Positions 42,397 to 43,371 of a stretch of 64,000 nucleotides of DNA are shown piece by piece (position 1 is the first letter of the stretch; the number at the start of each line of letters is the position of its first letter). Origin of the DNA: Escherichia coli 042 (GTDB taxonomy: Bacteria; Pseudomonadota; Gammaproteobacteria; Enterobacterales; Enterobacteriaceae); assembly GCF_000027125.1 (NCBI RefSeq), contig NC_017626.1, one strand, 5' to 3'. Made by a program: the position numbers and the translations under genes. The notes below the pieces were generated by a model. It saw nothing but the letters and a program-made list of their open reading frames with translations. It was not told where the DNA came from and made no database searches.

Positions 42397-42407
42397 CACT
42401 TATTTTC

Positions 42408-42436
42408 CCTGGCTCGCTTTTGCGGGCTTTTTTTTA
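42408..42436 (+). terminator. intrinsic terminator after the tRNA cluster
   Basis: ggctcgc tttt gcgggc followed by T9. Confidence 0.5.
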
Positions 42437-42441
42437 AATGT

Positions 42442-42656
42442 CTCACAATTCAGGCGGTTGACTGTTGTCTGGTTTGCGGGGAGTTTGTTAAAAGAAACTG
42501 GCATGGTGAATCCCCCTGTGCGGAGGGGCAATCAGCGAGTAGGTATATGGGATAATCGCGGATTCAGGTGCTGGTACTGAATTCACCGGGAGGCACCCGG
42601 CACCATGCAATGGCACATAGCGCCACTCTCCAGCCCCTCTCCGGAGGGGCTTTTCT
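42442..42656 (+). repeat. structured element copy A (~215 bp) ending in an intrinsic terminator; candidate sRNA or cis-regulatory leader
   Basis: shares blocks ctcacaattcag, ttgac, tttgttaaaa, gcatggtgaatccccctg.gcggaggggc, tcaccgggaggcacccggcaccatg and terminator gcccctctccggaggggcttt with copy B. Confidence 0.6.
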
Positions 42657-42844
42657 GTGCCGGATACATCACAGTTTCTGGAACCTTAGGTACTACAGTA
42701 TCAGTCAGGGTGCTATATTTTCAGATGTGATGAAAGCCTGTCAGCAGGCAGGGCGTATCGGAAATGACCCAGTAGAGAAAACGTTGACTCAGATACCGGT
42801 GCTGAGTTACCGGGAAACCGGCATCACATGACCGCTATCCTTCC

Positions 42845-42870
42845 AGGCCCATCCGCTCCGGTGGGCCTTT
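42845..42870 (+). terminator. intrinsic terminator between the two repeat copies
   Basis: ggccca tccgctccgg tgggcc ttttt. Confidence 0.5.
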
Positions 42871-42909
42871 TTACTGCAGAAAACAGGTTCCCCGTTAAAT
42901 GCTATGTTG

Positions 42910-43142
42910 CTCACAATTCAGTAAGTTGACAGTTGCCTGTCAGACTGGGCATTTGTTAAAAAAATTTCGCATGGTGAATCCCCCTGAGCGGAGGGGCGAC
43001 TGGTGACGGTATAATCTCTGATTATCAAAACGAGAATGACGCGGGTTTAGTGGCACCGGACTGAACTCACCGGGAGGCACCCGGCACCATGTGCATGATG
43101 ATACAGATACGCGGCTTTAGCCCCTCTCCGGAGGGGCTTTCT
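42910..43142 (+). repeat. structured element copy B (~233 bp) ending in an intrinsic terminator
   Basis: same conserved blocks and terminator as copy A. Confidence 0.6.
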
Positions 43143-43371
43143 TATGGACAAAAAAAGCCCGCGCTGGGAGACGCGGGCGGCAAGGAATAAACAATAAAAC
43201 GTGAAGTAATATTTCAGCTGGCGAATAATACCCCATAGTAATCACTCTGCGCAACTGCGCGGTCTTTTTCGAATTGCGGGCTGTAGTCTCCCTTCTGCCA
43301 TTGTCCTGTAACTTCCGGACTTCAGCCTGCTCCTTATCTGACTCACAACATTATCCCGCCCGGGAGGATTC

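Follow-up and report, generated by a model that had tools for sequence, protein, structure and literature searches.

An stx-free tRNA-to-esterase interval with tandem STnc100-family sRNA genes in a prophage of Escherichia coli 042

Introduction

What occupies the toxin position in a lambdoid prophage that is laid out like a Shiga-toxin-converting phage and carries no toxin gene? The question is raised by a 64,000-nucleotide stretch of the Escherichia coli 042 chromosome (NC_017626.1), referred to here as the window. A preliminary description had recognized the layout of Stx phages and had treated the ~1-kb interval at the toxin position as a cargo slot filled by non-coding elements. The interval, 42397-43371, is bounded by the end of tRNA-Arg(UCU) (42396) and the ATG of an esterase gene (43372).

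RNAs of the type found in this interval are Hfq-associated prophage sRNAs known from the "moron" site (Tree 2014; Pearl Mizrahi 2021; Zhu 2026); downstream of PR', convergent Hfq-bound sRNAs sit between the moron genes and a conserved phage ORF (PMC4104026). EcOnc27 of strain Sakai, called sRNA103 in EDL933, overlaps STnc100 downstream of stx2B (PMC12711010), and STnc100 homologues show Hfq crosslinking in Sakai (PMC12711010; PMC4104026). EDL933 encodes eleven STnc100 copies, with RNA-seq reads for all and a northern blot for one (PMC5331693). PasD1 and PasD2 are 172-173 nt long with a 5' end at the G of GCAUGGUG, and the stability of Pas sRNAs is reported to depend on Hfq (PMC8550237). A common ancestor has been reported for PasD and STnc100, and certain genomes have PasD immediately 5' of the esterase gene (Zhu et al. 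2026).

Results

The late module matches that of Stx2a phages, and the toxin position is empty

Gene order was established with PHROGs, Pfam and direct translation (Table 1). NCBIfam returned no family for the Q protein, esterase, holin or Rz, and its adenine methyltransferase domains match the methyltransferase below their curated cut-offs. The tRNA(CAU) is named Met by ARAGORN, Ile by PGAP and ileZ in the annotation of phage 933W, which lists the cluster as ileZ/argN/argO. The lysis cassette, for which the PGAP annotation of a 99.7% identical locus was also used, includes a frameshifted ydfR-like gene.

Table 1. Features from the upstream genes to the lysis cassette (positions within the window)
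Feature	Position	Strand	Evidence
DUF968/HNH protein	38222-39268		
RusA	39281-39655		
Q-like late antiterminator, 273 aa	39652-40473	+	phrog_127 and phrog_25523 "anti-termination protein Q-like", E ~1e-112
Putative PR' promoter, TTGATT-16 nt-TAAATT	40479-40506	+	Read from sequence
Terminator, putative tR'	stem 40556-40571 and T-run (to 40577)	+	Terminator scan; tR' assignment from sequence
Small ORF	40700-40897		
DNA methyltransferase, 349 aa	41048-42097	+	phrog_6025, phrog_67
Putative promoter 5' of tRNA cluster, TTGCAG-17 nt-TATTAT	42109-42137	+	
tRNA(CAU), tRNA-Arg(UCG), tRNA-Arg(UCU)	42147-42396	+	ARAGORN, Rfam tRNA
Terminator T1, after tRNAs	42411-42434 (scan site 42411-42428)	+	Scan; fold -11.4 kcal/mol, z -3.1
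Conserved upstream box CTCACAATTCAG, first copy	42442-42453	+	Direct repeat D1, alignment
Putative promoter of sRNA gene 1	-35 TTGTCT 42465-42470; TG-n-TAAAAG 42486-42494 (box and promoter region 42442-42500)	+	Predicted
sRNA gene 1, STnc100 family	42501-42662	+	Rfam RF02076, 136 bits; R1, 168 bits; MFE fold
Putative extended -10 of "mid" gene, TGcTATATT	42711-42719	+	
sRNA gene 2 ("mid"), diverged STnc100 type	42725-42879	+	R1, MFE fold, sub-threshold Rfam
Terminator T3, "mid" gene	42845-42868	+	Scan
CTCACAATTCAG box, second copy, and gene 3 promoter region	42910-42968	+	Repeat D1, period 468 nt
Putative promoter of sRNA gene 3	-35 TTGCCT 42933-42938; TG-n-TAAAAA 42954-42962	+	
sRNA gene 3, STnc100 family, with terminator T4 (43119-43138)	42969-43149	+	Rfam, 165 bits; R1, 163 bits
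Convergent sRNA gene with putative promoter TTGCGC (43254-43249)-18 nt-TATTAT (43230-43225)	43150-43254	-	Scan, fold, conservation
Terminator T5, before esterase gene	43247-43268 (scan site 43247-43262)	+	Scan, fold
Esterase leader, Shine-Dalgarno GGGAGG 43362-43367	43269-43371	+	Read from sequence
NanS-p-type sialate O-acetylesterase, 617 aa	43372-45225	+	Pfam DUF1737, SASA, DUF6645
Lysis cassette	45376-47263	+	PHROGs, translations
S21-type class II holin	45376-45591	+	
Endolysin	45967-46500	+	Hydrophobic N-terminus; E-x8-D-x5-T motif
Rz	46799-47263	+	
Embedded ORF, 60 aa, taken as Rz1 by position only	47019-47201		ORF list

Matching phage records numbered 302, roughly half of which are named as Stx-converting. 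Among bacterial strains, APEC E19035 shares 99.7% identity across the 7.7-kb late region, and HCP5S3_I4 has the interval at 100%. The closest Stx phage found, Stx2_EH1910 (LC567834, Stx2a), is arranged as ydfU, rusA, quuQ, a 65-aa ORF, DNA methylase, tRNA(CAU), two tRNA-Arg, a terminator, stx2A, stx2B, STnc100, esterase, holin and endolysin. Its quuQ is the same gene as the Q-like antiterminator of the prophage, its "DNA methylase" occupies the position of the methyltransferase, and it is 93.8% identical to the window over 38951-42434, which indicates that the Stx-phage-like layout is real and close, with identical gene order. The kinship extends no further than the late regulatory and accessory module: the prophage, which adjoins ompW, is mosaic, its head and tail genes being lambda/phage-21-like, and the label "toxin-less relative" thus fits that module and not the whole prophage.

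Alignment to Stx2_EH1910 and 933W gave the same order and placed the borders of the stx cassette precisely. Homology to 933W and Stx2_EH1910 stops at 42434, the 3' edge of T1, and restarts at 42911, in the second CTCACAATTCAG box; in Stx2 phages these two points are the left and right borders of the cassette, and the 933W annotation lists the equivalent of T1 as the terminator upstream of stx. The 476 bp between these blastn breakpoints (42435-42910), which comprise gene 1 and the "mid" gene, hold the place of the 1,335-bp stx2AB cassette in both phages. The remainder, 42911-43371, lies downstream of stxB in 933W-type and Oslovirus-type Stx2a phages and, judged from these alignments, is resident backbone comprising the third STnc100 unit, the convergent sRNA gene and the esterase leader. 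The idea of a cargo slot therefore survives for 42435-42910 and fails for 42911-43371.

The toxin position is empty, as had been proposed. Across the whole window, tblastn with Stx2A/B and Stx1cA/B (word size 2, low-complexity filtering off) and blastn with both operons (word size 7) gave a best E of 0.045 and no stx remnant, whereas positive controls gave E=0. The match at E=0.045 lay on the minus, and hence wrong, strand inside an STnc100 copy, and it was absent on a repeat run.

These borders bear on whether the prophage descends from a Stx phage that lost stxAB at the cassette borders, in which case the interval would be a scar and not a site that was never filled. We consider such a loss possible but doubtful. 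The borders coincide exactly with window sequence (the T1 end and the CTCACAATTCAG box), the repeated STnc100 units are substrates for recombination, and repeated loss of stx near these sRNAs has been proposed (Zhu et al. 2026). Moreover, a stx-negative prophage of O157:H7 has a single unit that resembles such a recombinant, in which a unit 1 body is fused to the 3' end of unit 3. However, the window retains no stx remnant of any kind, and its flanks share just 94% and 88% identity with the closest Stx2a phage found, which indicates that the window is no recent derivative of Stx2_EH1910. Furthermore, the stx-free interval was matched over at least 80% of its length in 352 of 5,426 complete E. 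coli genomes, from varied hosts. Whatever the history of stx, the extra and diverged STnc100 units probably arose by duplication or by unequal recombination between STnc100 units. A stx-negative wrbA prophage, like that of O157:H7, has a single unit.

The interval contains three tandem STnc100-type units and a convergent sRNA gene

The preliminary description had reported tandem structured elements and at least four intrinsic terminators, and we found five distinct plus-strand terminators and a single minus-strand terminator (43178-43157). Over 6 kb, the terminator scan gave 19 terminator-like sites, compared with 6.8 +/- 3.1 in shuffles. The structured elements are known sRNA genes (RF02076; EcOnc27/sRNA103; PasD relatives), so they are non-coding as had been stated and are not anonymous cargo. 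Rfam STnc100 (RF02076) scores 136.3 bits at 42472-42662 and 165.4 bits at 42940-43149, about three times its gathering threshold of 47. The unit between them reaches 30.1 bits at 42701-42874, below the threshold, with a local E of 3.6e-5. Our custom model, R1, gave 168, 37 and 163 bits for units 1, mid and 3, with E 2.5e-9 for "mid".

In unit 1, an 8-bp closing helix encloses four hairpins and is followed by a linker and by terminator T2 (42632-42651). In MFE folds the "mid" unit has the same architecture, with the closing helix AUGUGAUG/CAUCACAU compensated. Because "mid" was found in only five phage records, all ~91% identical, its structure is backed mainly by comparison with its paralogues. 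Among 19 family members, counted on a model-fitted alignment, pairing holds in 99% of cells and compensatory changes occur in 19 of the 36 pairs, compared with 5.6 +/- 2.0 in shuffles and 2-5 in slid controls. We also considered riboswitch-like switching, in that a repeat (family D2) is common to the first hairpin and the terminator, which pair in one centroid fold; 933W-type terminators lack this complementarity, and the idea was dropped.

The convergent gene is predicted to encode an RNA of ~69 nt (~43219 to 43150, minus strand; terminator stem 43178-43157; fold z -2.6). It is kept, with compensatory changes in the stem, in Stx2a, stx-negative and PhiR5_2 phages, and it matches the EPEC RIL-seq candidate E2348C_1409.E2348C_1408.IGR at 50 of 54 aligned positions. 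The T5 stem overlaps the -35 element of its putative promoter; T5 is kept in all phages compared, and the esterase leader in 933W, Stx2a and stx-negative phages. The convergent RNA is neither AsxR nor AgvB: RF02703 and RF02702, which cover a conserved 3' region of ~42 nt, gave no match at E<1 in 40000-46000, whereas 933W gave AsxR at 88 bits, and alignment revealed a different sequence. A 25-bit OmrA-B match at 43150-43238 (minus strand) was sub-threshold and unrelated in sequence.

Taken together, we conclude that the interval is the normal non-coding tRNA-to-esterase stretch of a lambdoid E. coli prophage with a Stx-phage-type late module that lacks stx, and that its contents are four small regulatory RNA genes of already-known types, which makes the interval real but ordinary. 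It is very probably a moron-site interval of the late operon, in which three tandem plus-strand genes share the STnc100/PasD scaffold and a single minus-strand gene converges on them.

The units probably act as separate RNAs in trans

Each plus-strand unit would have a weak sigma-70 promoter with an extended -10 element. The generic promoter scan did not report the sRNA promoters, whose sequences are weak matches, and both the promoters and the transcript start points are predictions, the start being assigned by comparison with the 5' end mapped for PasD2. Transcription would start at the 8-bp helix that closes a four-hairpin junction, which is the conserved scaffold, and proceed through a variable linker, the probable base-pairing region, to the unit's own intrinsic terminator. 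Alternatively, the 5' ends could come from processing of a longer transcript instead of initiation. Based on the homologues, we suggest that in the lysogen the units are transcribed separately into ~150-180 nt Hfq-associated RNAs that would act in trans on host and prophage mRNAs, and that the helix at the extreme 5' end probably shields them from 5'-end-dependent decay. T1-T5 would meanwhile hold the esterase and lysis genes silent, and on induction Q-modified RNA polymerase from PR' would pass all terminators into those genes. In Stx phages the stxAB cassette lies between T1 and the first CTCACAATTCAG box, where this prophage has an extra and a diverged STnc100 unit instead.

The location of the units, in the 5' region of the esterase gene and within a Q-dependent late operon, could also suit elements whose main action is in cis, either as a leader or attenuator of the esterase and lysis genes or as signals for processing or stability of the late transcript. 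A copy of the scaffold without its own terminator forms the dicB leader, the spacer between dicF and dicB, both in this prophage and in the K-12-type Qin prophage, and a transcript starting at the closing helix would suit a module for 5'-end protection or processing. However, every unit ends in a terminator of its own and carries a conserved promoter-like element, the homologues are discrete Hfq-bound RNAs in uninduced EHEC and EPEC, and in some prophages the unit is followed by minus-strand iraM and not by the esterase gene. In addition, the alternative antiterminator pairing of first hairpin and terminator is not kept in 933W-type copies. Accordingly, a mainly cis-acting role appears quite improbable, and we favor sRNAs that act in trans.

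The interval shows no sign of a protein gene

The absence of any supportable protein gene from the interval, as first described, is borne out by comparison with the colinear phage PhiR5_2. Mismatches across the interval fall on the three codon phases as 71/80/76 (p=0.76), whereas those in the esterase gene fall as 85/73/201 (p=7e-19), and the indels of the interval are 1-4 nt long and not multiples of three. That the interval encodes small proteins, either the 55-aa ORF family phrog_23557 (42664-42831) or antisense ORFs (phrog_24488, phrog_27294), is suggested by PHROG matches at E 7e-30 (42568-42831), 4e-11 (42940-43080, minus strand) and 3e-18 (42400-42531, minus strand) and by a 55-aa CDS annotated at the equivalent place in PhiR5_2, but is very improbable, since the phrog_23557-type ORF lacks its ATG in the window (ATA CAT for ATG TGT), most differences from PhiR5_2 alter the amino acid, neither mismatches nor indels follow codons, NCBIfam is empty, PGAP gives just an "incomplete" pseudo-CDS antisense to STnc100, and RNA structure with covariation accounts for the same DNA. 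We argue that these three PHROG families were built from miscalled ORFs, given how the substitutions are distributed, that the start codon is missing, that codon periodicity is absent and that NCBIfam gave no match.

Discussion

The arrangement described here is already known, and it has little consequence beyond annotation. The prophage has the full late regulatory and accessory framework of a Stx phage with the toxin site unoccupied, which fits the known picture of stx as a movable cassette with a fixed site between the tRNA terminator and the sRNA gene. For annotation, pipelines put spurious ORFs and pseudo-CDSs onto these sRNA genes, and Rfam misses diverged members of the STnc100 scaffold, namely the middle unit and the dicF-dicB spacer.

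A broader proposal, which we consider fairly unlikely, is that the invariant 5' junction of STnc100 is an autonomous RNA module that extends beyond one sRNA family. The junction reappears, with compensatory changes, in all three tandem units, in PasD and in the terminator-less dicF-dicB spacer of Qin-type prophages, the sequence of which is matched at least partly in most E. coli genomes. It might be a 5'-end protection or processing element, possibly tRNA-like, in which an acceptor-like stem would stack on a 5-bp arm that abuts it. If the proposal were true, variable seed linkers or whole mRNAs would be attached to the module, and the dicB-leader copy and the diverged middle unit would count as members that lack annotation. 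An origin of the scaffold from a tRNA and its terminator was considered separately: R1 matches tRNA-Arg(UCU) plus T1 weakly (19 bits in 933W, 8 in the window), with only the outer stem and terminator aligning.

Among known sRNAs, STnc100 (RF02076) shares with units 1 and 3 their structure, the terminator and the position 5' of the esterase gene; this prophage has three tandem units, whereas most Stx2 phages have one, and the linkers differ between copies. PasD1 and PasD2 of EPEC E2348/69 share with the units a 5' scaffold that starts at GCAUGGUGAAUCC, R1 gives PasD2 34 bits, and PasD2 lies directly 5' of the esterase gene, as in the prophage interval. In contrast, the PasD linker, with its CCUUGUGAG seed, and the PasD terminator are unrelated in sequence to the interval units; blastn-short with PasD2 found no match in the window, only the 5' scaffold aligns, and the target sets of PasD need not apply to the units. 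PasA and PasC were considered for the region between esterase and holin, which has no similarity to them and only a plus-strand terminator hairpin (45308-45336). The convergent RNA resembles the AsxR/AgvB anti-sRNAs (Tree et al. 2014), which are likewise short minus-strand RNAs with an intrinsic terminator that converge on STnc100 between the moron site and a conserved phage ORF.

Among phages, 933W (AF125520) shares ileZ-argN-argO, the terminator, STnc100 with a convergent minus-strand sRNA, the L0105 esterase (54% identical), S, R and Rz/Rz1, as well as coincident stx cassette borders and a tRNA-terminator block that is 90% identical to the window. It differs in having stx2AB, a different and shorter Q, and no methyltransferase gene, of which ~100 bp homologous to the 3' end are left. 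In 933W, STnc100 lies 75 nt after stxB with convergent AsxR, absent from the window, adjoining. Furthermore, 933W is a short-tailed phage of the Sepvirinae, whereas the window has lambda/21-like structural genes. In Stx2_EH1910, the STnc100 copy after stxB (8625-8863) is 87.7% identical to sRNA gene 3, linker included; only this STnc100 part of 42911-43371 is common to both, and minus-strand iraM stands where the window has its convergent sRNA gene. Finally, a Stx1c phage carries stx1AB together with two tandem STnc100 copies, which, with the unit downstream of stxB in Stx2a phages, indicates that these RNAs are not simply an alternative to the toxin.

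Tandem STnc100-type units between the tRNA and esterase genes

The interval (42397-43371) extends from the first base past tRNA-Arg(UCU) to the last base ahead of the esterase ATG, and the order of the surrounding late genes is the one given in the preliminary description (PHROGs, Pfam and direct translation; see table). Downstream of the Q gene, a promoter-like sequence is followed by a strong terminator, which on sequence grounds fits a putative PR'/tR'. The tandem structured elements previously described within the interval correspond to two strong matches and one weak match to STnc100 (RF02076), the latter under the Rfam gathering score of 47. 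An 88-nt direct repeat with a period of 468 nt includes both strong copies, and the box CTCACAATTCAG opens each repeat.

Features of the late region and associated RNA genes (window positions)
Feature	Position	Strand	Basis or remark
C4 antisense RNA, isrK, DicF	within 25810-26289	-	Rfam gathering score
sok antitoxin RNA beside hokD-type gene	35332-35507	+	Rfam gathering score
RusA gene	upstream of Q		PHROGs/Pfam/translation
Q-like antiterminator, 273 aa	39652-40473		PHROGs/Pfam/translation
Small ORF	between Q and methyltransferase genes
DNA methyltransferase gene	41048-42097		PHROGs/Pfam/translation
Three tRNA genes	between methyltransferase gene and interval
T1	42411-42428	+	intrinsic terminator
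STnc100 match, unit 1	42472-42662	+	Rfam, 136 bits
T2	42632-42651	+	intrinsic terminator
STnc100 match, middle unit	42701-42874	+	Rfam, 30 bits
T3	42845-42868	+	intrinsic terminator
STnc100 match, unit 3	42940-43149	+	Rfam, 165 bits
T4	43119-43138	+	intrinsic terminator
Convergent RNA, ~69 nt	terminator 43178-43157	-	promoter-like TTGCGC-18 nt-TATTAT, ~45 nt A/U-rich, strong terminator
T5	43247-43262	+	intrinsic terminator; overlaps minus-strand -35
Esterase gene, 617 aa	right of interval		DUF1737, SASA, DUF6645 domains
S21-type class II holin gene	downstream of esterase gene
Endolysin gene	downstream of holin		hydrophobic N-terminus + E-x8-D-x5-T motif
Rz gene with embedded 60-aa ORF	downstream of endolysin; ORF 47019-47201		ORF taken to be putative Rz1, by position only

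R1, a covariance model built from 12 copies in the window and related phages, scored units 1, middle and 3 at 168, 37 and 163 bits. Folded alone, the middle unit adopts the architecture of unit 1, which comprises an 8-bp closing helix, four hairpins, a linker and a terminator, and its closing helix is compensated (AUGUGAUG/CAUCACAU versus GCAUGGUG/CACCAUGC in unit 1). Among 19 family members, 99% of cells were paired and both-sided changes occurred in 19 of 36 pairs (5.6 +/- 2.0 in shuffles, 2-5 with slid partners), in an alignment that was fitted to the model and consequently flatters the structure somewhat. Core sequences are invariant across copies that are only ~70% identical elsewhere. 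Variation is free in the stretch between hairpins 1 and 3 and in the linker ahead of the terminator, which look to have been shuffled between copies.

Absence of a protein-coding gene and of stx remnants

As the preliminary description had proposed, the interval contains no protein-coding gene that can be supported. Three ORFs match PHROG families of unknown function; the best of these lacks a start codon in the window, and its substitutions relative to its counterpart in the colinear phage PhiR5_2 are mostly amino-acid-changing. The 227 mismatches between the interval and PhiR5_2 show no phase bias (71/80/76, p=0.76), in contrast to the adjacent esterase gene (85/73/201, p=7e-19), and the indels are 1-4 nt long. 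An NCBIfam search of the interval ORFs gave no match. The missing start codon, the substitutions, the absent phase bias, the indel lengths and the NCBIfam result speak against these ORFs being real genes. PHROG families 23557, 24488 and 27294 match ORFs over small-RNA genes (42488-42616, minus; 42664-42831, plus; 42940-43080, minus; 42400-42531, minus), and on the strand opposite STnc100 in a genome with 99.7% identity PGAP annotates an 'incomplete hypothetical protein'. All of these calls appear to be artefacts that annotation has derived from conserved RNA genes.

A search for stx remnants, previously proposed as a check, yielded nothing above chance in the window: Stx2A/B of 933W (AF125520) and Stx1cA/B as queries gave a best E of 0.045 (controls E=0), and stx operon DNA gave chance matches only.

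Predicted expression of the units, and the convergent RNA

By homology with PasD2 of EPEC E2348/69, which shares a scaffold with the window units, each plus-strand unit is most likely a separate small-RNA gene. PasD2 is a 172-nt RNA with its mapped 5' end at the G of GCAUGGUG (PMC8550237). Based on this end, unit starts were placed at 42501, ~42725 and 42969, which lie 7 nt past TG-n-TAAAAG, TATATT and TAAAAA elements, respectively. RNA-seq reads cover STnc100 copies in EDL933 (PMC5331693), the Sakai copy beside stx2 overlaps Hfq-bound RNA (PMC12711010; PMC4104026), and Hfq-dependent stability has been reported for Pas sRNAs (PMC8550237). In a lysogen, the units would yield Hfq-associated RNAs with variable linkers that could pair with targets, and a helix-buried 5' end should slow 5'-end-dependent decay. 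The plus strand of the interval carries five intrinsic terminators, where at least four had been counted; after induction, Q-modified polymerase should transcribe past T1-T5 and so reach the esterase and lysis genes.

The convergent minus-strand RNA, its stem altered by compensatory changes, is kept in Stx2a and stx-negative phages and in PhiR5_2, and it matches an EPEC RIL-seq small-RNA candidate at 50 of 54 aligned positions. By Rfam, it is neither AsxR nor AgvB (no match at E<1).

A fourth scaffold at dicF

A fourth STnc100-type scaffold lacking its own terminator (26217-26039, minus; R1 55 bits; Rfam 35.6 bits, sub-threshold) directly follows DicF and precedes isrK, C4 and the antirepressor gene. 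In the K-12-type Qin locus (L013 724-849), the scaffold takes up the dicF-dicB spacer, stopping ~28 nt ahead of the dicB ATG (R1 56 bits; Rfam 34.4 bits, under the gathering threshold). Similar sequence was matched, at least partly, in 4,627 of 5,426 complete E. coli genomes. These placements suggest the STnc100 junction as a reusable RNA module, a reading that we consider doubtful.

Prophage context and flanking genes

The prophage is integrated beside ompW (region 20140-21954, with the integrase gene at 20824-21954, minus), a site also occupied by EHEC 'PPompW' prophages, with which Stx2a phages occur there in tandem. Its early region is ~93% identical to these prophages over about one-third of its length, and its head and tail genes are lambda- and phage 21-like. 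The proposal of a toxin-less Stx-phage relative thus stands for the late module but not beyond it; the prophage is a mosaic. Matches covered at least 80% of the interval in 352 of the 5,426 genomes and some portion of it in 2,869. Late regions nearly identical to this one are present in avian pathogenic isolates as well as in porcine and human ones.

The last ~100 bp of the methyltransferase gene (41996-42097) are 90% identical to non-coding sequence in L004 (3970-4071). The counterpart precedes the tRNA genes in 933W and in Oslovirus-type Stx2a phages, where the methyltransferase gene was not seen, and may be a gene fossil or a module boundary. The esterase-holin spacer (45226-45375) contains a strong plus-strand terminator hairpin (45308-45336) and no similarity to PasA; EPEC has minus-strand PasA/PasC small RNAs at that position. 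A ydfR-like gene in the holin-endolysin gap (45596-45911), annotated as frameshifted in a 99.7% identical APEC locus, may be a pseudogene within the lysis cassette.

The corresponding site in Stx phages

In 933W, the tRNAs are followed by a terminator, stxA2, stxB2, STnc100 (75 nt past stxB), AsxR on the minus strand and the esterase gene (L0105, 54% identical to the window esterase). Homology to the window breaks off where T1 ends (42434) and restarts with the second box (42911). The Stx2a phage Stx2_EH1910 (LC567834), a much closer relative, has the same Q, small ORF and methylase (93.8% identity over 38951-42434), next a 1,335-bp stx2AB cassette, and then an STnc100 copy 87.7% identical to unit 3, linker included. 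These breakpoints and this order indicate that 476 bp of the window, comprising unit 1 and the middle unit, stand in for the toxin cassette. The layout likeness noted earlier therefore holds against both phages, and small-RNA units do fill the place of the toxin cassette, but this slot is just 476 bp rather than the entire interval.

Other phages show further states of the site. Single units lie immediately past T1 in an stx-negative wrbA prophage and in an O157:H7 stx-negative prophage; the unit of the latter appears to have arisen by recombination between unit 1 and the 3' end of unit 3. The three-unit array recurs in PhiR5_2 and strain 127, and in other prophages the unit has DUF3927 or iraM genes nearby. 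In an Stx1c phage (L005 4398-4884), stx1AB precedes two tandem units, and in Stx2_EH1910 a minus-strand iraM gene (L012 8877-9200) takes the place of the convergent small-RNA gene, which indicates that the site also varies on its right side. Taken together, these states mark the small-RNA gene as a constant feature of the cargo site's right border, with a copy number that changes through recombination.

The arrangement and its small RNAs are already described: convergent small RNAs between moron genes and a conserved ORF downstream of PR' (Tree et al., 2014, PMC4104026), PasD as related to STnc100 and, in some genomes, directly upstream of the esterase gene (Zhu et al., 2026), and STnc100 downstream of stx2B in two 2025 papers (one being PMC12711010). 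To these, our analysis makes only small additions, namely the diverged middle unit and exact borders for the cassette site.
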